Shown here: piece after piece, positions 1 through 12,334 of the stretch
Numbering within the stretch: the first letter of the stretch is position 1
How the letters are laid out: each line of letters begins with the position of its first letter
From: Candidatus Multivorans sp.
Lineage (GTDB): Bacteria > Acidobacteriota > Thermoanaerobaculia > Multivoradales > Multivoraceae
Assembly: GCA_965247095.1 (NCBI GenBank)
Contig: OZ251997.1
Span: forward strand, 2,496,001-2,560,000
DNA: 64,000 bases
Reading direction: 5' to 3'
Made by a program: the position numbers and the translations under genes
The notes under the pieces: generated by a model
Database searches by the model: none
The model's input: the letters and a program-made list of their open reading frames with translations, nothing else
What the model was told of the DNA's origin: nothing

Positions 1-1098
1 AAGGAGGAGATGTACCGGCGTCGATTCAGCGGCGAACACTTTCGCTTGGGCGACATCCACGACCTCGGCATCGGCGACCTGCCGCCCGGCTTGGACCTCG
101 TGACCGCGTCGTTCCCCTGCATCGATCTCTCGCTTGCCGGAAACCGAGCGGGTCTGGCGGGCCGGCACTCGGGGACGATCTGGCCGTTTCTGGAGATCGT
201 GACGGCCCTGTGCATCCAGCGCACGCCGCCTTCCGCCGTCCTGCTGGAAAACGTGACGGGCTTCCTCACGTCGAGGGGCGGGGCGGATCTCGCCGATGTG
301 TGCCGTCGTCTGGCCGTTGTCGACTACGTCATCGACGTGCTGCTTGTCGACGCGCGTTGGTTCCGGCCCCAGAGCCGTCCTCGACTGTTCGTGGCGGCGC
401 GGCAACGCAAGTTGGGAGGTCCGTGGCACCGGTCGGATTCTGAGCCTTCTCGTGTGCGTCCTGCCGCGGTACGCCGGTTCGAGGCAGCTCATCCCGAGCT
501 GCCCTTCGTCGACCTGCCCTTACCGGCACCGCCGACTGAGGCGCCCAACACTCTCGCTTCCGTACTTGAGGATCTTCCGCTGGATGATGCCCGCTGGTGG
601 CCCGAGGACCGTACTGCCGCCCTGGTCGCCGAGATGGCGCCGCAGAATCGCAGCCGGGTGGATGAACTGCTGGCCGGAGAGCGTGACGGGGTTGCGACGA
701 TGTACCGCCGCCGCCGGAACGGCCGCACGGTGGGTGAACTCAGGCCCGACCGCCTTGCGGGTTGCCTCAGAACCCCCCAGGGCGGCAGCAGCGTCCAGTT
801 CCTGATTGATTGCCGCACCGGAGCCCCTACGATCCGGCCACTGACCGGTCGAGAGTACGCACGCCTGCAGGGCGCGGACTCCTTCCCCATCGAAGTGGGC
901 GACCGCCAGGCCAGGCTGGGCTTCGGCGACGCCGTGTGCGTGCAGGCTGTCCGGTGGCTGGTGCAGCACGCTTTTGACCCTGAACGTAGCGCGCCGCAGG
1001 ACGCGCCGGCGTCCTCTGGTGAAACGGCGGCGATTCAGTTCCCGTACGCCCCCCCGACAAGCGGCCGCCGTGAGCCGCAACGTCCGCTGTTCACGTAA
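1..1098 (+). CDS. DNA (cytosine-5)-methyltransferase, probably 5'-truncated by the window edge
   Basis: C5-MTase motifs: IV SFPC, VI LLENV, VIII QSRPRLF, IX RPLTGREYARLQG, X GDAV; motif I (FxGxG) absent, so it probably lies upstream. Confidence 0.93.
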   Translation, partial: KEEMYRRRFSGEHFRLGDIHDLGIGDLPPGLDLVTASFPCIDLSLAGNRAGLAGRHSGTIWPFLEIVTALCIQRTPPSAVLLENVTGFLTSRGGADLADVCRRLAVVDYVIDVLLVDARWFRPQSRPRLFVAARQRKLGGPWHRSDSEPSRVRPAAVRRFEAAHPELPFVDLPLPAPPTEAPNTLASVLEDLPLDDARWWPEDRTAALVAEMAPQNRSRVDELLAGERDGVATMYRRRRNGRTVGELRPDRLAGCLRTPQGGSSVQFLIDCRTGAPTIRPLTGREYARLQGADSFPIEVGDRQARLGFGDAVCVQAVRWLVQHAFDPERSAPQDAPASSGETAAIQFPYAPPTSGRREPQRPLFT

Positions 1099-1111
1099 CT
1101 CGCCCCGCTTG

Positions 1112-1678
1112 ATGCTGCCTGACACGCTCGACGTTCGCGCGGCGCTGATCTACTTCCGCTTACATCTACCGCCCCTATCGGGGGCGTCTTCGCCTCTTCA
1201 GGGACCGAGGCCTGAAGCCGCGGATGGTCATGTCAGAAGATTGGGACGTGTTCACGTGTCCATCCTGCTGAGGCAACAGGGCGTGGCCAGTCGAGAGGGT
1301 CCGGACCTTGGCGACACAGAGGTCAAGTCGGCAGTAGCCGGCGGTTCCTTCGAGTACCAGTACCACCGAAACTCCTGGAAGAAGAAGCTCGAAGCGGACC
1401 GGCGTTCCGGCCACGCCTTCGTCTGGTACGGCGACGACCTGCACTCAATCGAGGTCTGGTACTGCGACGGTGAGCGAATGGGCGGCCACTTCGCCGCTTG
1501 GGAAGCTGAGAAGCCCTACTCGGATCCCGGTCAGCAGCGGTTTCGCAAGCAGGTGAGCGCCGGGTGGGTCCGCGAGCACGCTACGCTGCTGCTGCGTGTG
1601 GTCGCCGGCGAGGCGGAGTACGAGTGGCGCACATCGGAAAGTGTCACCAGTACCTCGCCCCCCGACGCTGTCACATGA
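1112..1678 (+). CDS. Putative type II restriction endonuclease (PD-(D/E)xK fold), with apparent compensating frameshifts
   Basis: Directly follows the MTase; GPDLGDTEVKS fits PD...ExK; between ~1160 and ~1258 the +1 frame reads YIYRPYRGRLRLFRDRGLKPRMVMSEDWDVF, more protein-like than the ORF frame; start uncertain. Confidence 0.6.
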   Translation: MLPDTLDVRAALIYFRLHLPPLSGASSPLQGPRPEAADGHVRRLGRVHVSILLRQQGVASREGPDLGDTEVKSAVAGGSFEYQYHRNSWKKKLEADRRSGHAFVWYGDDLHSIEVWYCDGERMGGHFAAWEAEKPYSDPGQQRFRKQVSAGWVREHATLLLRVVAGEAEYEWRTSESVTSTSPPDAVT

Positions 1679-2652
1679 CTAAGGACCGCTGCCCGATCTG
1701 GGGCACACCCGCCACTCACTATCCGCGAGATGGCGATCGACTCAAACTTGATTCCCCGCGAGCCGGCGGCATCTACTCCGTTTCCGGTACTGCGCTGGCG
1801 GCGCTCCCGAACTACGGCCAGCAAGAGCGACTGAGGCTTACGTCCTGGCTGGTGGAACAACGGACGCTCGGCAACGACTGCCCCGTGGTCTCCTCCGTCA
1901 CTCTCGATGACGCGAGCCAGAGAGCGGCATCGCCTGTCGTCGATCGCGCGGACAGGATCCTTAAGTTCCTTGCAAGCAGGACTGACGTCCTCGGAGCCAA
2001 GGTCCGGTTTCGTACCGTATCGAACTATCATCAGCTTGACGATCTAGGCAGAGCCTATCTTGAGCTTCTCGCTCAAGCCGAGTGCGTCGGCGAGAACGAT
2101 CTGGACTTCCTGCTGGACTACTTGGACGAGCGCGGGGCGCTTCGGCGGCGCAAGGCCATCAGCAACCCGGAGCAAGCATGTGCCTTGACGGTGAGTGGCC
2201 ATTCACGTTTGGCCGAACTGCAAAGCCCACAAACCGAATCGACACGAGCCTTTGTGGCCATGTGGTTCGACCGGTCTATGGACAAGGCATGGCAGCTTGG
2301 ATTTCGCGCCGCAGTTCGCGACGCGGGGTACGATCCGGTCCGGATCGATCAGCAAGAGTACGTGAGCAAGATCGACGATGAGATCATTTCAGAGATCCGT
2401 AGGTCCCGTTTCGTAGTCGCAGACTTCACGCACGGCGATGACGGGGCCCGCGGTGGCGTCTACTATGAGGCGGGATTTGCACACGGTCTCCACATTCCTG
2501 TGTTCTTCTGTTGTCGAGAGGACAAGCTCAACTTGGTTCACTTCGACACCCGACAATACAACCATATCGTCTGGAATACACCAGACGAACTCCGAGAGAA
2601 GCTCTTCAACCGAATTGCAGCCGCAGTCGGAAATCGGCCGCTGAAGTCTTGA
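1675..2652 (+). CDS. Protein with C-terminal nucleoside 2-deoxyribosyltransferase/TIR-like domain
   Basis: ATG at 1675 overlaps the upstream TGA (ATGA); C-terminal FVAMWF...IRRSRFVVADFT...GVYYEAGFA...HFDTRQYNHIVW pattern. Confidence 0.75.
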   Translation: MTKDRCPIWGTPATHYPRDGDRLKLDSPRAGGIYSVSGTALAALPNYGQQERLRLTSWLVEQRTLGNDCPVVSSVTLDDASQRAASPVVDRADRILKFLASRTDVLGAKVRFRTVSNYHQLDDLGRAYLELLAQAECVGENDLDFLLDYLDERGALRRRKAISNPEQACALTVSGHSRLAELQSPQTESTRAFVAMWFDRSMDKAWQLGFRAAVRDAGYDPVRIDQQEYVSKIDDEIISEIRRSRFVVADFTHGDDGARGGVYYEAGFAHGLHIPVFFCCREDKLNLVHFDTRQYNHIVWNTPDELREKLFNRIAAAVGNRPLKS

Positions 2653-2805
2653 ACAGGCACGTTGCGGAGTTCCCGGACTGTGACCGGACGGGCAGCCAGG
2701 ACGTTCCAGCAGCAGCGAAAGGCATGTCCGCCTGATCAACAAGATGGACCCTTGGACCTGCCCTTGTGTGACGGCAGCGTCCAAAGCCCAGCACGTTCTG
2801 GTTCC

Positions 2806-5245
2806 TCACTTCAACCGGTTGACACCGACGGGCTCATCGACTCCATCGACAAGCATCTTGCACTGCCCTCTTGATTGAAAGATAGTAACACGCGGCATGT
2901 AGCTGTACGAGTACTCGTAGTGGTACTCCGATTGTTCCCAGATCTGACCATTCGTCAGCTTGACGACGGTATCGCCTTCCCACCCTTCGAACTCACCGTC
3001 GACTCTGCTCTCGACGTCACACCTCGAAGAGTCGCCCGCAGTTGGTGCGGACGGCAGCCTCTTGTCTGCATCCGCATCTCGACCCGCGGCAAGCATGGCG
3101 TCCACATCCACGAAACCGCGTCCCGCGGTGGGCGGAGCGTGTTCCGTGGGCGACTGCTCACAGTTGAACCTCTGACTGGGGCTGGCGGTGCCGTCCGTAG
3201 AGCGTGAGAAGTCGTAGTAGAGACCGGTGCCGTCAGGCTCAATGAGGAACATGTAGTCATATCTTCCGTCGTCATCGGGACCGAAATCCCAGCGCCGGTT
3301 GAGTCCTTGGACTTCAAACGCTGCCGTATGGGTTGTGCCGGCAACCGACACCTCACCGCCGTTCTCCAGCCGAGTCAGCGTGAGCAATACACTCGTGCGG
3401 TTGAAGTCGGTCGTGTCGAAGCAGCGCCACGGCTCCAATGATGCAATCCGCTCCTTCGCCTTGTCGTCTCCTTTTTCCGCAGCGAGGCGGTACCAACGCA
3501 GGGCCTCGCTGAAATCCGGCTCCACGCCGCGACCATTCTCATAAGTGGAGCCGAGGAGAAACTGCGCTCCGGCGTGTCCTTGTTCGGCAGCTCTGCGAAT
3601 CCATCGGGCAGACTCAGAGTAGTCCTCCTCCACGCCTTGGCCCAATGCGTAATGGAGTCCGAGGCTGTACTGCGCTACAGCATGGCCCTGCTCCGCTGCC
3701 AACCGGTACCACCGCACAGCCTCGGCGTCGTCCTTCTCCACGCCGAGTCCAGAGGCATACCTGCTGCCGAGGCTGTACTGCGCCTCGGCGTTGCCTTGTT
3801 CGGCGGCCTCAGGCGTACTCGGCAGCGTGGGCGTTGGGTCGGTCCGCCGGAGGGCTGCCACTGCGTCGGGATGACCTTGGTCAGCGGCTAGACGAAACCA
3901 GCGGTCGGCCTCAACAGTGTCCTTCGGCACACCTCGCCCGCCAGCGAGCATCACGCCGAGGTTGTACTGGGCTTGCGCGAACCGCTGCTCGGCTGCCAGT
4001 CGAAACAGCCGTGCAGCCTCAGCGTCGTCTTGGGGAACGCCCTGGCCCACCGAGTACATGTGACCGAGATTGATCTGTGCTCCACCGTGGCCTTGTTCGG
4101 CAGCCGGGCGTAGCCACCGGAGAGCCATCACGTCGTCCGTTCCCATGTAGAGAGACCCGAGTTCGGCCATCGCTCCGGCGTGCCCCTGATTCGCCGCTCG
4201 GGTCAACCAAAGTAGAGCCTGCTCCTTCCTCTCGTCGGCATCTACATCGCCGCGCCCTTCGGCGTACGCGACAGCGAGTTCGTACTGCGCCTCCGCATCA
4301 CCGCCTTCCGCAGCGCCCAGGAGTTGATTGAACCGGGCGTCGCCCTGTGTTTCAGACACGCCGCCTACATCCTCCAGCGTCGCATCCAGCTCGGCCAGTT
4401 CATCGAGCGTGTCCCCGAACATCTCAAGTGTCTGGGCGTGGCCCTGTTGGGCTGCACGATAAAGCCACTTCACGGCCTCGCTGCCGTCTTCCGGCACACC
4501 ATCCCCCTCGATGTACAGCATCCCGAGCTTGAACTGGGCGTCCGCGTGGCCTTGTTCGGCCGCCATGCGGAGCCAACGGGCAGCTTCAACGGGGTCCTTC
4601 GGCACACCGCGGCCCTCGTGGTGGTACATCCAAAGCAAGAACTGCGCATCGACGTAGCCTTGTTCGGCAGCGCGCCGGTACCACCGCGCAGTTTCGGCGT
4701 AGTCCTGAGAGACGCCCGCGCCTGCTGTACATGCCGCCCATCTCAAACTGTGCCTCGGCGTCGCCCTGGTCGGCGGCACGGCGAATCCACTTCACGGCTT
4801 CGGCTTCGTCCTGGATCACGCCGTGCCCGTTGTAGTACAGCAACCCGAGGTAGAACTGGGCCTTGGGGTCGTTCTGCCCGATAGCTCGCCGGTACCACTG
4901 CAGCGCTTCCGAGTAGTCCTTTGGCACGCCGTGCCCGACGTAGTACAGCCGCCCGATCATGGCTTGGGCCTCGGCGTGCTCCTGCTCCGCAGCCAATCGA
5001 ATCCACTTCACAGCCTCGCCGGGGTCGGCCTCCATGTATGTAACCCCGAGTTGAAACGCGGAAGCGGCGTGACCGCTCTCTGCCAAAGCCCGTAGTTGTG
5101 CAGCGTCAGACGGCTCCAGCCGGCCCGTGGTGTTGGTCTGGGGGTGAACAGCCGTGCCGAGGGCTAGACACGTGATGAACGCGGCGACGACGCGAGCGGA
5201 ACTTCTCGAAGGTCGGCCGGCGCTCCAGTCAATCTTCTTCGTCAT
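2806..5245 (-). CDS. Secreted Sel1-repeat protein, frameshifted near 4727
   Basis: Many AQxxLGxxYxxGxGVxxDxxEAxxWxxxAAEQG repeats split over ORFs 4586..5329 and 2806..4779; signal-like N-terminus from ATG 5245; two non-repeat C-terminal domains. Confidence 0.88.
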
Positions 5246-5274
5246 GGGTCGGAGTTCCGGTGGAAGCGGACCGA

Positions 5275-5535
5275 TTTCTTGAGCGACTGAATGATCGACT
5301 TCATTCCTTCGAGGCGAGCGTTGGTACACCCCCGTTCAACCGTGTTCAGCACGCCGTCGAGATGAGCCTCGATCACGCCCGCGACCTCCTTCATCGGCTC
5401 GAGAGGGCCGCAGATGACCCAAGAGTAGCAGGCGCCGAGGCTCTTTCTCGACTCGGGCGCGGCCCCGCACCTCCCACATCCTCATCGCCGTCTCTTGCCG
5501 GCAACACGCCGTCTTCAAGGTCGCATTCACCCCAG
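5275..5535 (-). pseudogene. ISL3-family transposase remnant
   Basis: Minus-strand fragments in shifting frames read LKTA..ETAMRMW, YSWVICGPLEPMKEVAGVIEAHLDGVLN and TNARLEGMKSIIQSLKK, resembling the ISL3 transposase C-terminus. Confidence 0.6.
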
Positions 5536-5736
5536 GGTCTCGCCGGACGGGCGGCTGGCGTTCACTTCGCCCCGCCAGTTCCATACGACGTCTGTCGGAC
5601 CTGACAGCTCGCTGAGGCTCGTGAAAGGACGTGACGAGCTTGGGCCTGTCTTGGAGAGATGGGACAGCAGTAGCCTGTAACCGAGAATCACGCCAAACGT
5701 CGCTGGAGCGTCGAGCTCTCCCCGCGCAGTTTCGAT

Positions 5737-6516
5737 TCAAGGAATCAGGCGAACCTCCAAAACAGGATGCCTTCGTGAGCGCTCACCCGGCACGTAGTCT
5801 CCCATTACGAAAACGTGATCTAAGTTCTCCGGGCGCCTCACTTCTGTCTTCTCCAAGTACTCGGCCAAGTGGTCCTGCAGATAGAGTTCGGGCGTGAAGA
5901 TCAGCAGAAAGCTGCTGTGCAGGCGAGAGTCGAGTGCGTTCTCGCCGTGCTTCCGCATCCTCCTCGCCTTCTTAGCTCCGGCCTTCTCGTCCTTTGTCTT
6001 GACGATCTCCACTAGACGCATCTGAAACCGCTCAAGAGGCCACTCGACCGAGCCCTTGTATTTGGCCGGGTCTGCTCTGACATGGCCTTCCCGTTCAGCC
6101 TTCTTGTCTGTATCGAGTTCAGCACCATGCCAGCGAAAGACAAAGGCACCGTTCTGACGTTGCTTCCACTCCAAGATGGTCACTTCGCCATGGGCGGAGG
6201 CGAAGCAGATCTGGTACCTCTTCGGGTACTCCACCAAGTCGGTCACCTCAATGCCGACAAGCTCGCCGTCGATCTCGACCAAGACGTCCGGCGGGTCGTC
6301 GAGATTCGGCCTGATCTCAGAGACCGAGTGCCCGCACTTCTCCATCTCCTTGGCCCAGTCTTGGACTTTTTCTACCTCCGCGAGTTCTTGGTGGCCATGG
6401 ATATTGTCTAAGTAGGGAGAGTGCGGACTGCTCTTCTCCGCGATCCGCAGCATCTCCTCAAGCACTTCAGCATCGACCGAAGTCTCTTCGGGCCGTTCGT
6501 TCTCTCTTTCCGGCAT
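5737..6516 (-). CDS. Hypothetical protein, possible PD-(D/E)xK nuclease-like fold
   Basis: 259-aa ORF with GGAGG RBS; DPPDVLVEIDGELVGIEVT resembles a restriction-endonuclease-like core. Confidence 0.55.
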   Translation of the reverse strand: MPERENERPEETSVDAEVLEEMLRIAEKSSPHSPYLDNIHGHQELAEVEKVQDWAKEMEKCGHSVSEIRPNLDDPPDVLVEIDGELVGIEVTDLVEYPKRYQICFASAHGEVTILEWKQRQNGAFVFRWHGAELDTDKKAEREGHVRADPAKYKGSVEWPLERFQMRLVEIVKTKDEKAGAKKARRMRKHGENALDSRLHSSFLLIFTPELYLQDHLAEYLEKTEVRRPENLDHVFVMGDYVPGERSRRHPVLEVRLIP

Positions 6517-6683
6517 AGTTCCTCCAATAACGGCGGGATCAACCCCGCGCTGGGTGACCAGGTAGCGATGTTCGCTTTCACTGCCCTATGCGTCGCGCAG
6601 CCGAAATCCGTTTACGTACTAGGCTGCCCGGTAGCACCGCCCAGCAGCCCTATGCCGTTGGTGGTTGCAGTCCCTCACCCCCG

Positions 6684-7592
6684 TCAATGAATCACCCCCC
6701 GCAGCCGCGGATCCAGCAGGTCCCGCAGCGCGTCGCCGACGCAGTTGAACGACAGCACGAGCAGGAAGATCGCCACGCCCGGGACGATCGACAGCAGCGG
6801 CTGCTGCTCTAGCATCGGGAAGGCCTGCTGGAGCATGTTGCCCCAGGTCGGGGTGGGCGGCTGGATGCCGACGCCGACGAAGCCGAGGGCGGCTTCGGTT
6901 AGAACGGCGTAGCCCATGCTGAGGGTCGCCTGGACGATCACCGGAGCGATGCAGTTGGGCAGGATATGGCGCAGGATGATGCGCATGTGGCTGAGGCCGA
7001 TGCTCTCGGCGGCCTTGACGAAGTCGCGCTCGCGGATCGATAGCCCCTGGCTGCGGATGATCCTGGCCATCCAGGGCACGTTGGCGATGCCGATGGCGAT
7101 GATCACGGTGCGTAGCGACCCGCCCAGCGCGGCCGCCAGGCCGACGGCGATCAGCAGGCTGGGGAACACGACCAGCGCATCCATGAGGCGCATGAGCACG
7201 TCGTCGACCCGGCCGCGGAAGTAGACGGAGAGCAGGCCGAGGGGTACGCCCAGCAGCACTCCCAGGCCGACCGCGCCGAGGCTGACGGAGAGCGCGATTC
7301 TCGCGCCGACGATCAGCCGCGCCAGCGTGTCGCGGCCCATCTGGTCGGAGCCGAGCAAGTGGACGGCGCTGGGGCCCGAGAGCAGGTTGTCGAAGTCCAT
7401 CTCTTCGGCGTCGACGGGGACGATCCAGGGCGACAGCACGGCCGCGGCTGCAATCAGGGCCAGCACGACCAGCCCGGCGAGCGCCTGCGGCACGGACGCG
7501 AGCTTGCGCAGCAGCTCGACGGTCGGGTGGCTGGCACCGACCGCGGATGCGGGCAGGATGCCCGCGTTCCCAGGGCGGCCGCGGCTAGGCAC
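6684..7592 (-). CDS. Peptide/nickel ABC transporter permease (DppC/OppC-like)
   Basis: HLLGSDQMGRD, EAA-type loop DFVKAAESIG, HILPN, GDALRDLLDPR. Confidence 0.93.
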   Translation of the reverse strand: MPSRGRPGNAGILPASAVGASHPTVELLRKLASVPQALAGLVVLALIAAAAVLSPWIVPVDAEEMDFDNLLSGPSAVHLLGSDQMGRDTLARLIVGARIALSVSLGAVGLGVLLGVPLGLLSVYFRGRVDDVLMRLMDALVVFPSLLIAVGLAAALGGSLRTVIIAIGIANVPWMARIIRSQGLSIRERDFVKAAESIGLSHMRIILRHILPNCIAPVIVQATLSMGYAVLTEAALGFVGVGIQPPTPTWGNMLQQAFPMLEQQPLLSIVPGVAIFLLVLSFNCVGDALRDLLDPRLRGVIH

Positions 7593-7643
7593 CGACCGCC
7601 AATACGGGCAGGATGCCCGCGTTCCCAGGGCGACCGCGGCTAG
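7533..7643. repeat. Tandem 55-bp duplication containing the REP-like palindrome GCGGGC-AGGAT-GCCCGCGTTCCCAGG
   Basis: Two near-identical units starting at 7533 and 7588. Confidence 0.9.
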
Positions 7644-8593
7644 TCACCGAACTTGATCCTCGGATCGAGCCAGGCGCAGGCCACGTCGGTAATCAGGTTG
7701 GCGGCCAACACCGCCACCGCCATCAACAGCACCGCCGCCTGCACCACCAGGAAGTCCCGCGCAAAAATCGCCTGCACCATGTACTGGCCGGTGCCGGGGA
7801 TGCCGAAGAGCGTCTCGATCACGATCGCGCCGGCGAAGATGCGGCCGGTCTGCAGGCCGAGGATCGTGACCACGGGCAGCAGGGCGTTGCGCAGCGCATG
7901 CGACCAGATGACCGTGCGCTCGCGCGCGCCCCTGGCGCGTGCGGTGCGCAGGTAGTCCTGGGCGAGCACCTCGAGCATCGCCGAGCGGCTCTGGCGCATG
8001 ATCAGCGCGCAACTCGTGACGCCAAGGGCGAAGGCCGGCAGGACCATGTGGCGCAGGCTCTGCAGCGGGTCGTCGAACGGGCTCACGTAGCCCTGGCTCG
8101 GCAGCCAGCCGAGGCCCACTCCGAAGAGCAGGATCGCCATGATGCCGAGCCAGAAGTTGGGTATCGCGACCCCGCCGATGGAGACCACCGTCGCGGCGTA
8201 GTCGATCGGCTTGCCGCGATAGACCGCGGAGGCGATGCCCGCGGGCACCCCGATCAGGACCGCGAGGATCCAGGCCGCGATGCCGAACTGCAGGGTCACA
8301 AGAGCCCGGGCACCGAGCTCTTCCGCGACCGGGCGCATGTTCTGGGTCGAGCGGCCGAAGTCGCCTTGTGTGACGTTGCCGAGCCAGATCAAGTACTGGA
8401 CGATCACCGGTTCGTCGAGGTGGTGACGCTCGCGGATGATCTGCAACTGCTCTTCGTCGAGCGCCTCACCGGGGCCGATGAAGGCCCGCGCCGGGTCGCC
8501 GGGGATCGCGAGCATCAACGCGAACACCAGGAACGTGACCAGGAGGAGAACGGGCACCGCCTGCAACAGGCGGCGCGCGAGGTAGCTACGCAT
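7640..8593 (-). CDS. Peptide/nickel ABC transporter permease (DppB/OppB-like)
   Basis: PGDPA, GDFGRS, DYLRTARARG, HALRNALLP, LDPRI. Confidence 0.94.
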   Translation of the reverse strand: MRSYLARRLLQAVPVLLLVTFLVFALMLAIPGDPARAFIGPGEALDEEQLQIIRERHHLDEPVIVQYLIWLGNVTQGDFGRSTQNMRPVAEELGARALVTLQFGIAAWILAVLIGVPAGIASAVYRGKPIDYAATVVSIGGVAIPNFWLGIMAILLFGVGLGWLPSQGYVSPFDDPLQSLRHMVLPAFALGVTSCALIMRQSRSAMLEVLAQDYLRTARARGARERTVIWSHALRNALLPVVTILGLQTGRIFAGAIVIETLFGIPGTGQYMVQAIFARDFLVVQAAVLLMAVAVLAANLITDVACAWLDPRIKFGD

Positions 8594-8603
8594 GTGGCTA
8601 GTG

Positions 8604-10244
8604 CTAGTCCTCCAGCCAGATGTTCACGAAGTTCATCTTGCCGTCCCAGCCCATCAACTGGTCGAGGTTGCGCACCCTCGCGGGCGCCGCGGCATAGGTC
8701 ACTCCGTAGAGCAGCGGCGTGAACCAGGCCTCTCCGAGCACCGTCCGGTTGAGCTCGACGTAGACCTGCTTGCGGGCCTCGTTGTCGTAGAACGAGGCGC
8801 CCAGCTCCACCAGCGCGTCGACGTCCGGGCGCAGCACGTTGCCCGGGTTGTAGTAGCCATCGCTCTTGTAGGCCAGCGACGCCATCCAGTCCGGCTCGGG
8901 ATAGCGGCTCCACGACGTGACGAACATCGGGTACTCCTGGCCGTGGTTGAACCTCTCGGTTGCCGGTCCACTGGACAGGACGTCGATGTTCATCACAATG
9001 CCGATCTTCTTCAGCAGCGCCCGCACGACCTCGGCGCTGGACACGAGCAGGGGGTTGTGGTGGGTGACCGCCGTGAACTCCAAGCCATCCTCGCGGCCGG
9101 CTTTTGCAAGATAGCGGCGGGCCTTGTCGAGGTCGTAGTAGGGGCGCTCGTCATCCGGCTCGTGGACCCAGGAACCCACCGGCCACATGCCCGCGTCGGC
9201 CTCGATGGCCCGGTCGAAGAAGATCGCCCTGTTGATCACGGTCGGATCCACGGCGTGCGCGATCGCCAGCCGGACGTTCACGTCGTCGAGGGGCGGTTTG
9301 TTCACGTTGAACACCAGCGTGAGGGCGATGGCGCCGCCCGGCATCGTTTCCAGTTGAAAGCGCTCGTCACGCTCGAAGGTCGACACGTCCTTGTAGGGGA
9401 GGTAGGTGACGTCGATCTCTCCCGTGCGCAAAGCCGCGGCGCGGACCGTCTCGTCGCGGATCACCCGGATCGTCACCTCGTCGAGATACGGAAGCTGATT
9501 GCCGTGCTCGTCACGGCCCCAGTAGTCCTCGTTCCTCACCAGGTGCACGAGGGTGCCGGTGATCACCTCCTTCACCTTGAACGGGCCGGTCCCGGACGGG
9601 TTCCAGCCGTAGTCGGGGCCGAGCGCCTCGACCGCCGTCGGCGAGCTCATCACGCCGCCCCGGTCGGCCAGCATGCCGAAACCCGCGCCCCACGGCCGCG
9701 CCAGGTCGAACCGCACGGTGTAGTCGTCGATCACTTCGACCGCCTCGATCACCGCCAGCGATGCGCGCGGCGTGGCGATGGTGTCCGGGTCGAGAATGCG
9801 CTCGATGTTGACCTTCACCGCCTCGGCATTGAACGGGGTGCCGTCGTGGAACACGACGCCCTCCCGAAGCTGGAAGGTGATCGAGTCGGGGTCCGTCGCG
9901 ATCTCCCAGGAGGTCGCGAGGGAGGTCTCCGGCCGCGGCGCGAGCTGCGGGTCCGCATCGACCAGTTGATCGAAGAGCTGGCGCCAGAAGTAGGCGTCGG
10001 CGCCCGATCGCCCCAGGACCGCGTCGAGCGAGGTGGGCTCCAGGGAGTGGCCCACGCGCAGGTGGCCGCCGTAGCGTGGGCCGCCGACGGCAGTGCGTTC
10101 GCGCGCCGGCGGTGCGCCGGCCTCCAGGCGGTCGGCTCGGCTCTCGGGCGCGCACCCGACCACTGCGGTGAGGAGCACTGACAGCAGCACCACTGGCCCG
10201 GATACGATCTCCCTGAGCGGTGACAACGGCGGTACAACAGACAT
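8604..10244 (-). CDS. ABC transporter substrate-binding lipoprotein, family 5
   Basis: GGAGG RBS then ATG 10244; lipobox VVGC; LREGVVFHDGTPFNAEAV, GTGPF, NEDYWG. Confidence 0.92.
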   Translation of the reverse strand: MSVVPPLSPLREIVSGPVVLLSVLLTAVVGCAPESRADRLEAGAPPARERTAVGGPRYGGHLRVGHSLEPTSLDAVLGRSGADAYFWRQLFDQLVDADPQLAPRPETSLATSWEIATDPDSITFQLREGVVFHDGTPFNAEAVKVNIERILDPDTIATPRASLAVIEAVEVIDDYTVRFDLARPWGAGFGMLADRGGVMSSPTAVEALGPDYGWNPSGTGPFKVKEVITGTLVHLVRNEDYWGRDEHGNQLPYLDEVTIRVIRDETVRAAALRTGEIDVTYLPYKDVSTFERDERFQLETMPGGAIALTLVFNVNKPPLDDVNVRLAIAHAVDPTVINRAIFFDRAIEADAGMWPVGSWVHEPDDERPYYDLDKARRYLAKAGREDGLEFTAVTHHNPLLVSSAEVVRALLKKIGIVMNIDVLSSGPATERFNHGQEYPMFVTSWSRYPEPDWMASLAYKSDGYYNPGNVLRPDVDALVELGASFYDNEARKQVYVELNRTVLGEAWFTPLLYGVTYAAAPARVRNLDQLMGWDGKMNFVNIWLED

Positions 10245-10300
10245 TCGGTCCTCCAACTCTATGGGGACCAAGGCCATGGAGTTGAGCAGAGGAGCGCCAC

Positions 10301-11875
10301 ATGGGAAAGCAAACGGCACTCCTGGTGCTCGGCACGCTGCTCTGCGTACCCTGCGCCGCGCAGCCGCCCGACCGGTCAGATCAGCTCCTGCTGTTGCCCG
10401 CCGCTGCACCGAATCGGCAAGCGGGCCTCGACGATCGTCCGAACGTCCTGTTCATCGTCGCCGACGATCTGAACGTCGCGCTCGGCGCCTACCTCGCTTC
10501 GGCGCCCTCGCCGCAGTATGCGGGCGCGAAGACCCCGAACCTGGACCGGCTTGCCGCGGAGGGAATTCGCTTCGACCGCGTCTACGTGCAGAACCCGCTC
10601 TGCAACCCGTCGCGGACCTCGTTCCTGAGCGGACTGCGGCCGCCCACGGTGGACGTCTATGACGGCTCGACGCCTCCGCGCCACAAGATCGGAAGTTCTC
10701 TGCGCATGCTGCCGGAGCACTTCCACGATCACGGCTACTTCACGGCGCGCGTGGGCAAGATCGCGCACAACACCTTCGAACATGTGGTGACGTGGGATGT
10801 GTCGGCATTCGCCCTGTCGCGAGAGCCCGACTTCCGCTTTCACCTGCCGGGCTACCTGCCCGGCGTCGACCTGTCCGCCCAACGCGACAACACCTGGACG
10901 GACGGCGCCGAGGACGGCATGTCCCGCGCGGACGTCCTCAGGCCGATCGAGCGGCGCGCAGGCCTGCCCCTGTCATGGCGCGCGACCCGGGAATCGCCGC
11001 GCATGACGCCGGACGGAACCACCGCGACACGCATCGTCCAGTTGATGGCAAGGAACCGGGATAAGCCCTTCTTCATCGCCGCCGGCTTTCACAAGCCCCA
11101 CCAGCCGTGGGTCGGCCCCGTGGAGTTCTTCGAGCAGCACCCCGCCTCTGAGATCCGATTGCCGCCGACGCCGCCGGACGACACCGCCGACCTGCCCGAC
11201 GCGGCGTTCCGACTGCTGCCAGACGACGCCGCCCACACCGAGAGGCAGCACAAGCAGGCCATCGCCGCGTACCACGCGATGGTCACGATGACCGACTCCT
11301 ACGTCGGCCAACTGCTGGAGGCGCTGGAGTTACTCGGTCTCGCCGATTCCACCATCGTCGTGTTCACCAGTGACCACGGCTTTCAGTTGAACGAGCACGG
11401 CGGGCTGTGGCGCAAGACCTATCAGTTCGAGGAATCGACGCGCGTGCCGCTCATCGTCCGGCTCCCGGGCGGCCGGCAAGCCGGTGAGGTCACGGGCGGA
11501 CTCGTGGAACTGGTCGACCTCTACCCGACGCTCGTTGAACTGTGCAACCTGCCGACACCGGCGCATGAGCTCGAAGGCACGAGCTTCCGGCCGCTGCTCG
11601 ACGATACGGAGCTGCCGTGGAAGTCGGCGGCCTTCTCGGAGTCGAAGCGCGAGAGCTTCCACGGCCGCACCCTGCGAACCCAGCGCTACCGGTACACGGA
11701 ATGGACCCCGCTCGAAGCGACGGACGCCGAAACGGAGCGCGAACTCTACGATCTCGAAGAAGACCCCTTCGAGTACGAGAACCTGGCGCTCGATCCGGGG
11801 CGCCGCGCGGTCGTCGAGGAGCTGTCCCGTCAATTGCGCGCGGGCTGGCGAGCGGCGCTACCGGAGTCGATCTGA
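10301..11875 (+). CDS. Secreted sulfatase (iduronate-2-/choline-sulfatase-like)
   Basis: PNVLFIVADDL, CNPSR formylglycine motif, GFHKPH, SDHG; signal peptide. Confidence 0.92.
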   Translation: MGKQTALLVLGTLLCVPCAAQPPDRSDQLLLLPAAAPNRQAGLDDRPNVLFIVADDLNVALGAYLASAPSPQYAGAKTPNLDRLAAEGIRFDRVYVQNPLCNPSRTSFLSGLRPPTVDVYDGSTPPRHKIGSSLRMLPEHFHDHGYFTARVGKIAHNTFEHVVTWDVSAFALSREPDFRFHLPGYLPGVDLSAQRDNTWTDGAEDGMSRADVLRPIERRAGLPLSWRATRESPRMTPDGTTATRIVQLMARNRDKPFFIAAGFHKPHQPWVGPVEFFEQHPASEIRLPPTPPDDTADLPDAAFRLLPDDAAHTERQHKQAIAAYHAMVTMTDSYVGQLLEALELLGLADSTIVVFTSDHGFQLNEHGGLWRKTYQFEESTRVPLIVRLPGGRQAGEVTGGLVELVDLYPTLVELCNLPTPAHELEGTSFRPLLDDTELPWKSAAFSESKRESFHGRTLRTQRYRYTEWTPLEATDAETERELYDLEEDPFEYENLALDPGRRAVVEELSRQLRAGWRAALPESI

Positions 11876-11968
11876 GTCTTCGGCTTCACCACGAGCAGAG
11901 GCACAGCCCGCTCTCCAAGTAGACCGAGGCCTACGCCGCATCTCCGTGGTGTCCGCTCCCGCCGCGCG

Positions 11969-12334
11969 CTATCGGATCTGGCGCACGCGTCCTCGGTCTC
12001 CCCAGGCACGGTCGGCCGTCCACGCGATCCCGTCCACTCGTTCGGCGAGCGCGAGGCACAGCCGATCGGCCAAGGAGAGACCTTCTCTCCGCCTCCAGCG
12101 GCCGGCGGCCCGCTCCGCGTCCTGCTGGGTCACCACTTCGACGGTCAGGCCGTAGCTCAGCAGGAGAGTGCGAGCCAGCAGCCAGTCCCGCCCCGCTCCG
12201 CGAACCTTTTGCGACACCTCCGACCAGTTGGCGGCACCGCAGACGGCACGTTCGTCCATAGCTTTCTCGACCCGTTCGGCACCCTGCTCCCCCTGCAGAT
12301 AGGCCAGGATCGCCGACGCGTCCAGAACGTTCAA
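11969..12334 (-). CDS. vapC: VapC-type PIN-domain toxin
   Basis: VLDASAILA, NWSEV, GLSLADRLCLALA, TADR. Confidence 0.88.
   Translation of the reverse strand: MNVLDASAILAYLQGEQGAERVEKAMDERAVCGAANWSEVSQKVRGAGRDWLLARTLLLSYGLTVEVVTQQDAERAAGRWRRREGLSLADRLCLALAERVDGIAWTADRAWGDRGRVRQIR

Follow-up and report, generated by a model that had tools for sequence, protein, structure and literature searches.

A restriction-modification pair with a frame-disrupted nuclease beside a candidate phage-defence gene of a widespread nucleoside deoxyribosyltransferase/TIR-like family in Candidatus Multivorans

We analysed a 64,000-nucleotide stretch of Candidatus Multivorans sp. (Acidobacteriota; contig OZ251997.1, forward-strand positions 2,496,001 to 2,560,000), referred to here as the window, whose bases 1-2652 carry three co-directional genes on the plus strand. 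Genes are numbered along window coordinates, and the plus-strand open reading frames (ORFs) and their translations were taken from the sequence (Table 1). Gene 1 encodes a predicted C5 methyltransferase, gene 2 belongs to a family with a predicted PvuII-like nuclease fold, and gene 3, whose start codon overlaps the stop codon of gene 2 in an ATGA, encodes a protein with a predicted nucleoside deoxyribosyltransferase (NDT)/TIR-like domain at its C-terminus. A preliminary description of the locus had presented the three genes as a single candidate defence system, and both the co-directional layout and the ATGA overlap on which it drew are borne out by the ORFs and the sequence. We propose instead that a restriction-modification (R-M) pair with a frame-damaged nuclease lies beside an autonomous, horizontally mobile defence-island gene of sensor-effector design, a reading to which, taken as a whole, we give an even chance of being right.

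Gene 1 matches the Pfam family PF00145 over profile positions 36-318 of 324, with a score above the curated cut-off (E = 3.5e-26; 92.8 bits, the cut-off being 22), as well as the PADLOC model MTase_II (PDLC03243; E = 1.4e-85; positions 42-363 of 377). Its N-terminal ~35-42 residues, the region of AdoMet motif I, fall outside the window, and its translation contains what we take to be the PC and ENV motifs. Judged by these matches, the product of gene 1 is, as originally assigned, a C5 cytosine DNA methyltransferase. Aligned along its whole length, it shares 33-36% identity with the C5 methylases adjoining gene 2 homologues on two plasmids.

The nuclease family represented by gene 2 is less familiar to the databases. 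Gene 2 gave no match in Pfam, NCBIfam or PADLOC, and a sequence search of the Protein Data Bank (PDB) returned chance-level hits only. A large protein set contained 99 relatives at E<=0.01, mostly of 172-201 amino acids (aa) and all annotated just as 'hypothetical protein'. Family alignments of 45 and 60 sequences show D65, E70 and K72 (GPDLG..EVKSA) to be invariant, and all three residues are retained in the window copy; D44-W45-E46 is invariant too, and EYQYH and QR.R are among the other features of the alignment. The fold was assessed on an intact homologue, P0126, rather than on the window copy. Its AlphaFold model (pLDDT 87, pTM 0.82) returned PvuII entries as the top Foldseek matches (E 5.8e-5 to 1.8e-4, probability 1.00, TM-score 0.39-0.56), with NhoI, DpnI and RecU far below. 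On the evidence of this model the family has the PD-(D/E)xK restriction-endonuclease fold in a PvuII-like form, and it is a restriction-endonuclease family without a name in Pfam, NCBIfam or PADLOC. Type IIP enzymes of the PvuII type (EcoRV-like class) resemble gene 2 in fold, in size (~190 aa), in the Asp...Glu-x-Lys arrangement and in the adjoining methylase. The likeness has its bounds: gene 2 shows no sequence similarity to PvuII, the TM-scores given above are low, the window copy is frame-disrupted, and the partner of gene 2 is a C5 methylase, whereas the partner methylase of PvuII makes N4-methylcytosine.

Only two plasmid relatives of gene 2 were found (34% identity), each of them directly next to a C5 methylase gene. 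On the plasmid from Photobacterium, two HTH regulator genes precede the gene 2 homologue, and dcm follows it. Together with the window, three contexts of the family were examined, and a methylase is adjacent in all of them. Because the predicted fold is PvuII-like and the adjacent C5 methylases are homologous to gene 1, we conclude that genes 1 and 2 form a type II R-M pair with a putative sequence-specific nuclease.

In the window, this nuclease gene is damaged. In an alignment of 45 sequences the window copy alone deviates from all 44 homologues over residues 16-49 (34 codons), and three-frame translation, together with tblastn of three homologues, located 33 conserved residues in another frame at positions 1158-1256. 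Relative to the homologues, two nucleotides are missing at about position 1157 and two are extra at 1257-1258, a pair of compensating indels despite which the ORF remains open through to the ATGA junction. The replaced residues take in a long N-terminal helix and the helix bearing the invariant Asp44-Trp45-Glu46, which in the P0126 model precedes the beta-strands that carry Asp65 and Glu70-x-Lys72. The gene call in the protein set itself (P0124, 140 aa) starts past the damaged stretch. Since the two indels replace 34 conserved residues, the Asp-Trp-Glu helix included, the nuclease encoded in the window is most likely inactive and the methylase effectively orphaned. The PD-(D/E)xK assignment made in the preliminary description thus stands for the fold of the family and is not supported for a working enzyme in this copy, and any 'system' in the window would be without its nuclease. 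One may speculate that the exact compensation of the indels was kept so that ribosomes reach the ATGA junction.

Gene 3 encodes a stand-alone protein that the AlphaFold model divides into two halves (pLDDT 86 overall, mostly 83-97 in the N-terminal half). Its start codon is backed by alignment, 27 homologues likewise beginning 5-7 residues ahead of the motif CPIWG. The C-terminal motifs already noticed in the sequence are present as FVAMWFD (residues 193-199, nucleotides 2251-2271), ADFT (residues 249-252, nucleotides 2419-2430) and YYEAG (residues 263-267), and eight positions (F193, A195, D250, V262, Y263, E265, A266 and G267) are invariant across 58 diverse homologues, which sets the motifs apart from chance resemblance. 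Glu265 is conserved in all 27 sequences of a smaller family alignment as well as in all 58. At E<=0.01, PF05014 is matched by 47 of the 58 members (best E = 1.2e-6) and Pfam TIR models by none, TIR_2 scoring E = 0.12 against the window protein; six listed homologues bear a precomputed PF05014 label. The PADLOC model 'Effector TIR' (PDLC00733; C-terminal ~105 positions) is matched by all 58.

Structural comparison points the same way. Foldseek searches of the PDB with the gene 3 model returned BcmB, MilB, NDTs, DNPH1, the SARM1 TIR and the SPARTA TIR, all with probability 1.00. The TM-scores, normalised to target length, are 0.68 for BcmB, 0.64-0.68 for DNPH1, 0.57-0.59 for MilB and ~0.5-0.57 for NDTs, and the SARM1 and SPARTA TIR structures score about like the NDTs. 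Matches among viral structures (BFVD) are mostly proteins named as NDTs, phage and giant-virus NDTs included. Profiles and predicted structures together uphold the original view of the C-terminus as NDT/TIR-like with a conserved Glu, and the modelled domain has a flavodoxin-like fold of the N-glycosidase group. Glu265 lies within the segment that aligns with PF05014 positions 45-101 and would be the equivalent of the NDT nucleophile, as judged from the motif rather than from residue-by-residue superposition. Prediction of a homodimer gave scores of 0.38, 0.30 and 0.26 against a mark of 0.42, a result that counts as 'no answer' and was used neither way.

Within the gene 3 protein, the N-terminal half is the one that varies, with a mean frequency of the commonest residue of 0.30-0.49 vs 0.70 in the C-terminal domain. 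In the model it consists of a beta-hairpin cap with a conserved CPIWG...SPRAGG, followed by winged-helix-like helices and strands. This half gave no Pfam match at E<=1, no assignment by PDB sequence and no DNA-binding family, and an ESM Atlas search with it reached best scores of 0.89, under the tool's lead level. Proteins encoded on Bacillus mycoides plasmids have the C-terminal domain in common with gene 3 and a different N-terminus, a swap that fits a modular sensor-effector design. The role of sensor previously suggested for this half agrees with its conservation profile, variability being what a sensor would show.

Gene 3 belongs to a large and widely distributed family. Among 8000 scored candidates, 4257 match at E<=1e-3, with members of ~320-340 aa, and a library of cluster representatives yielded 8771, 5008 and 1558 clusters at E<=1e-3, 1e-10 and 1e-30, respectively. 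In species genomes, tblastn confirmed at least 585 stretches with homologues, and all locus statistics given here come from the best 80 of them; these include Alpha- and Gammaproteobacteria, Acidobacteriota, Latescibacterota, Chloroflexota/Dehalococcoidia, Poribacteria, Opitutales and others. Some of the closest relatives among the 80 loci are from metagenome-assembled Poribacteria, 'Poriferihabitaceae' and Latescibacterota, those from Dehalococcoidia being more distant. The family is without a name or a family-level model in Pfam, NCBIfam and PADLOC 2.0. Longer fused forms are rare, with only four found, which carry Type_ISP_C, a DDE transposase domain, an AAA domain and, in one case, no assignable domain; some may be read-through gene calls, and the only functional clue that they offer is the Type ISP link.

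Several features speak of mobility and loss. The GC content of gene 3 is 0.55-0.59 vs 0.64-0.70 in its flanks, and 24 plasmid records match it, four of them with a coverage of 80% or more of the protein and the majority over the C-terminal domain alone. A collection of 50,697 phage records held a single weak partial match, and we reject an origin of gene 3 as a phage gene on this count. Contig OZ244914.1 carries two near-identical copies (L011 and L074; tree branch lengths 0.027 and 0.072). Decay is suggested by five loci (L020, L029, L043, L052 and L068) whose gene 3 match is either interrupted or spread over two ORFs. It is conceivable that gene 3 is a housekeeping enzyme of nucleoside salvage or nucleotide sanitation, NDT- or DNPH1-like with a regulatory N-terminus, whose adjacency to R-M genes is incidental. 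Such a role would be in keeping with the PF05014 match, with the name 'nucleoside 2-deoxyribosyltransferase' that RefSeq gives to the plasmid homologues, and with the housekeeping neighbours present at many gene 3 loci. The patchy spread over many phyla, the plasmid records and the low GC argue in the other direction, as do the disrupted copies (L020, L029, L043 and L052), the near-identical pair in one genome, the large and variable N-terminal half and the repeated operonic nesting in defence systems described below. We therefore regard a housekeeping role as improbable.

The neighbourhoods of gene 3 were surveyed with Pfam on the nearest upstream (76) and nearest downstream (78) ORFs of at least 120 aa, and with Pfam and PADLOC on a selected subset of additional neighbours (47 and 27 ORFs, respectively), which brings the Pfam-scanned total to 201 ORFs. 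R-M or modification-type defence genes lie no more than two genes away in at least 30 of the 80 loci (Table 1). At least 10 further loci have other defence neighbours, namely AbiEii, SIR2/Dsr2-like, SIR2 with HerA, AAA_21, SLFN, PDC-S65, PDC-M02B and DRT-associated genes. The link between gene 3 homologues and R-M genes, on which the preliminary description had staked its case beforehand, is thus present. The form that it was expected to take, a recurring three-gene neighbourhood, is not: a gene 2 homologue occurs at none of the 80 loci, and a methylase like gene 1 at only one, on the opposite strand. Nor is there a fixed type of R-M partner, and the partners span many types that are unrelated to one another. 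In a quick maximum-likelihood tree that comprises 77 gene 3 proteins and omits four loci with interrupted copies, the label 'R-M neighbour' changes 24 times vs 23.8 times on average when labels are shuffled; at least seven changes are forced by well-supported branches, and the four C5-linked rows need four. The association with R-M is repeated and independent rather than inherited with one partner. An obligate three-gene system, in which gene 3 would be the dedicated back-up effector of this methylase-nuclease pair, can call on the shared orientation of the genes, on the ATGA overlap, which suggests translational coupling, and on the frequency with which gene 3 relatives lie within R-M operons. 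It is very improbable in view of the neighbourhood counts, of the two gene 2 homologues in annotated context, which adjoin a methylase and no gene 3, of the separate origins of the C5-linked rows on the tree and of the disrupted frame of gene 2.

Table 1. Features of the window (positions in window coordinates) and, below them, R-M and modification contexts of gene 3 homologues among the 80 loci
Feature	Positions	Strand	Basis or remark	Loci
Gene 1, C5 methyltransferase ORF	1-1098	+	Open at the 5' end of the window	
Gene 2, PvuII-like-fold family, frame-disrupted copy	1112-1678 (ATG 1112, TGA 1676-1678)	+		
Out-of-frame stretch within gene 2	1157-1258	+	Three-frame translation, tblastn, alignment	
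ATGA, overlap of gene 3 start and gene 2 stop	1675-1678	+	Read from sequence	
Gene 3, 325-aa stand-alone protein	1675-2652 (ATG 1675, TGA 2650-2652)	+		
Gene 3 N-terminal half, residues 1-188	1675-2238	+	AlphaFold model, conservation profile	
Gene 3 C-terminal NDT/TIR-like domain (predicted), residues 189-320	2239-2634	+	PF05014, PADLOC, Foldseek	
Gene 3 Glu265 codon (YYEAG), candidate catalytic residue	2467-2469	+	Invariance in alignments	
Sel1-repeat protein, first	2806-4779	-	PF08238, E 1.8e-88	
Sel1-repeat protein, second	4586-5329	-	PF08238, E 1.4e-26	
259-aa ORF	5737-6516	-	Acidic N-terminus	
Oligopeptide/nickel-type ABC permease pair	6684-8593			
Type I context of gene 3				L001, L013, L048, L049, L063, L065, L069, L073
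ResIII helicase/type III methylase context of gene 3				L005, L014, L015, L016, L017, L029, L031, L032, L035, L037, L050
Type ISP or Eco57I-like context of gene 3				L007, L010, L023, L068
C5 methylase context of gene 3				L024, L028, L074
Hma context, gene 3 between HmaB and HmaC				L042
DndH-like context of gene 3				L045
Other N6/N4 methylase context of gene 3				L056, L058

The arrangement of gene 3 within these operons is often tight. Its spacing to co-directional R-M, Hma or HerA genes is -4 to +23 nucleotides in 12 loci, and by this measure the ATGA overlap in the window belongs to a recurring style of nesting. Gene 3 stands between hsdS and hsdR in L069, between Mod and a helicase in L005, L015, L031, L032 and L037, and between HmaB and HmaC in L042. 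PrrC offers a comparison for a guard of restriction-modification. Acting as a general guard of this kind, gene 3 would be silenced by the R-M or modification complex in which it nests, or would monitor it, and would fire once a phage anti-restriction factor knocks that complex out or the methylation state shifts. Nesting between R-M subunit genes at these seven loci is in line with such a role, and so is the reported release of retron NDT-like effectors by DNA methylation (10.1101/2023.08.16.553469; 10.64898/2026.10.13.758329). The partners, however, come from unrelated R-M types with different subunits, so that a single physical interaction shared by all of them is unlikely; R-M labels cluster on the gene 3 tree no more than they do when shuffled; and among the scanned ORFs 50 of the 80 loci have no R-M or modification-type neighbour and ~40 no defence-type neighbour at all. 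A general guard function is consequently an unlikely explanation, to which we still allow some weight.

Particular neighbourhoods show further organisation. In Alpha- and Gammaproteobacteria an operon recurs (L005, L015, L016, L031, L032 and L037, at positions ~100-9100, and partly L029) in which a ResIII helicase (~985 aa), a type III methylase (~980 aa), the gene 3 homologue and a NERD/UvrD-type helicase (~695 aa) follow one another co-directionally, with the type III methylase matching PADLOC PDLC03632 over its full length; this operon may be a composite system of its own. In L042 (59-10299), gaps of 15 nucleotides separate gene 3 on either side from HmaB, a DUF1156 methylase, and HmaC, a DUF499 ATPase with an N-terminal Swt1-like HEPN domain. 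In four type I loci of Dehalococcoidia/Chloroflexota (L048, L063, L069 and L073), hsdS carries an N-terminal nucleotidyltransferase domain (Polbeta/NTP_transf_2) and is preceded by a small NTase_sub_bind gene, and this nucleotidyltransferase pair lies just upstream of gene 3. On plasmid p4 of Leptospira interrogans (L084, 3336-8148), genes for a SEFIR-domain protein and for a class I SAM-dependent methyltransferase of 772 aa flank, in the same orientation, a gene whose product has 33% identity to gene 3 and is annotated in RefSeq as 'nucleoside 2-deoxyribosyltransferase'.

The reading that we prefer treats gene 3 as an autonomous mobile gene that nests repeatedly in modification-based operons, be they type I, type III-like, type ISP/IIG, C5 type II, Hma or Dnd-like. 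Its N-terminal half would sense an infection cue, either a phage protein or a nucleic acid, and sensing would bring the C-terminal domains into an active arrangement. Glu265 would then catalyse cleavage of the N-glycosidic bond in NAD+ or in a (deoxy)nucleotide, and the loss of the metabolite would lead to a growth stop or to aborted infection. On this reading gene 3 is a plausible, predicted candidate for single-gene phage defence, whose product probably breaks the bond between base and sugar in NAD+ or nucleotides. Precedents for several of these steps are found in the literature. The effector of Ec86, which joins an NDT-like domain to a winged helix-turn-helix, depletes adenine derivatives or NAD+ (10.1101/2023.08.16.553469; PMC13276650), and RcaT of Retron-Sen2 is a second NDT-like retron effector (10.64898/2026.10.13.758329). 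'Swarozyc', a DUF4062 protein, is a TIR-like NADase that binds the portal of the phage through its winged-helix part (10.64898/2026.05.01.722283). Fusions of Abi-like N-terminal domains to NDT were predicted as toxins in 2013 (PMC3710099), and a TIR-DrHyd-SLOG grouping (PMC9503650) provides a further precedent.

A different possibility is that gene 3 acts on DNA, with the winged-helix-like half reading DNA, possibly its methylation, and the NDT-like domain excising or swapping bases in foreign DNA, which would amount to restriction through base excision or to modification through base exchange. The secondary structure modelled for the N-terminal half and the frequent linkage to DNA methylases are compatible with this idea, as is the ability of NDT enzymes to remove bases from deoxyribose and to exchange them; one study has also proposed that NDT fusions act on DNA (PMC3710099). 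If true, it would represent a restriction or modification chemistry not known for the NDT fold and would account for the nesting of gene 3 among DNA methylases and restriction subunits. Among the listed structural matches, however, no solved NDT-fold enzyme is described as acting on polymeric DNA. The nearest of these matches are enzymes that act on nucleotides or nucleosides, together with TIR domains that cleave NAD, and the lack of any detected DNA-binding family in the N-terminal half likewise tells against it. We assign a DNA-directed activity a low probability, preferring the sensor-effector that acts on NAD+ or nucleotides.

Against that preference, too, several points have to be set. 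The match of gene 3 to PF05014 (E = 2.4e-4, 21.6 bits) is under the curated cut-off of 28.8, and PDB sequence searches with gene 3 alone and with a 27-sequence profile gave only chance-level hits (nanobodies and a hyaluronidase). The predicted fold cannot separate NDT from TIR, and the activity and substrate proposed above are predicted from domains and context. The putative sensor role of the N-terminal half is deduced from its variability. The neighbour counts are lower bounds without a background rate, with second neighbours drawn from the chosen subset, and about half of the 80 loci have only housekeeping, mobile-element, toxin-antitoxin-type or unassigned neighbours among the scanned ORFs; the housekeeping examples include PanB, IlvD, GltB, RF3, CobT and ribosomal protein S9. 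Finally, the two indels in gene 2 could be assembly errors, in which case the nuclease would be intact.

Comparison with known systems helps to place the gene 3 family. Type II retron effectors (Ec86/Eco1, RcaT) share with gene 3 an NDT-like domain with a conserved Glu, joined to a winged-helix domain (winged-helix-like in the model of gene 3). They are antiphage and abortive, and their activity is governed by the state of the bound DNA, methylation included, according to three sources (10.1101/2023.08.16.553469; PMC13276650; 10.64898/2026.10.13.758329). The NDT domain is N-terminal in Ec86 and C-terminal in gene 3, which moreover has no PDB sequence match, and none of the listed Foldseek matches is a retron entry. 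We rejected the assignment of gene 3 as a retron effector, given that the 201 neighbouring ORFs contain no reverse-transcriptase Pfam family (non-coding RNA was not searched); in L022, a protein labelled 'RTasRmuC' by PADLOC lies two genes from the gene 3 homologue. An effector of CBASS or Thoeris was likewise rejected, the same 201 ORFs containing no cyclase family; TIR neighbours occur in only two loci (L063 and L065) and SIR2 neighbours in two (L038 and L039).

Swarozyc resembles gene 3 in combining, within one protein, a TIR/NDT-superfamily N-glycosidase domain and a helix-turn-helix or winged sensor (presumed in gene 3), and in its patchy, island-associated spread beside varied defence systems (10.64898/2026.05.01.722283). 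Its domain order is the opposite of that of gene 3, and none of the 58 gene 3 family members matches DUF4062 (PF13271) at E<=0.01, on which basis membership of the Swarozyc/DUF4062 group was rejected. The Abi-type proteins with an N-terminal domain and a C-terminal toxin, among them the predicted fusion of AbiJ-NTD1 to NDT, have a variable N-terminal module, an NDT-like C-terminus and a defence-island context in common with gene 3 (PMC3710099). DNPH1, MilB, BcmB and the classical NDTs supply the best structural matches of the C-terminal domain. They differ in their low identity (12-17%), in the additional 188-residue N-terminal half of gene 3 and in its defence-island context. In the literature library searched by full text, NDT-like domains in phage defence appeared solely as retron effectors, DUF4062 relatives and the 2013 prediction, and no listed paper describes the stand-alone gene 3 family. 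By analogy, then, gene 3 would be of a kind already known, that of NDT/TIR-like depletion effectors, and it is the stand-alone family with its predicted defence role that appears new.

The family behind gene 3 comprises thousands of clusters in many phyla, with a conserved NDT/TIR-like domain and a variable front half. Should the family prove protective against phages, the class that depletes NAD+ or nucleotides would gain a common single-gene system, and the family would provide a clean case for studying why such genes nest in R-M operons. The window locus itself allows a more modest description, as a decayed R-M pair with a passenger gene, its value lying in that family.

The immediate surroundings of the three genes were also inspected. 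A scan of positions 1-3200 for promoters and terminators found one weak promoter-like site within gene 3 and no terminators, which is not above shuffled sequences, and a tRNA scan of positions 1-12000 found none and hence no clue to an integration site. Directly downstream of gene 3, and convergent with it, lie two genes for Sel1-repeat proteins; as listed, their ORFs overlap by ~190 nucleotides, and one start is therefore probably over-extended. The Sel1-repeat genes, together with the taxa of some of the closest gene 3 relatives, hint at a host-associated community. Between the Sel1 genes and the permease pair lies the 259-aa ORF, in a stretch of lower GC (0.57-0.59). It has no match in Pfam, PADLOC or NCBIfam, and may mark the edge of an acquired island.

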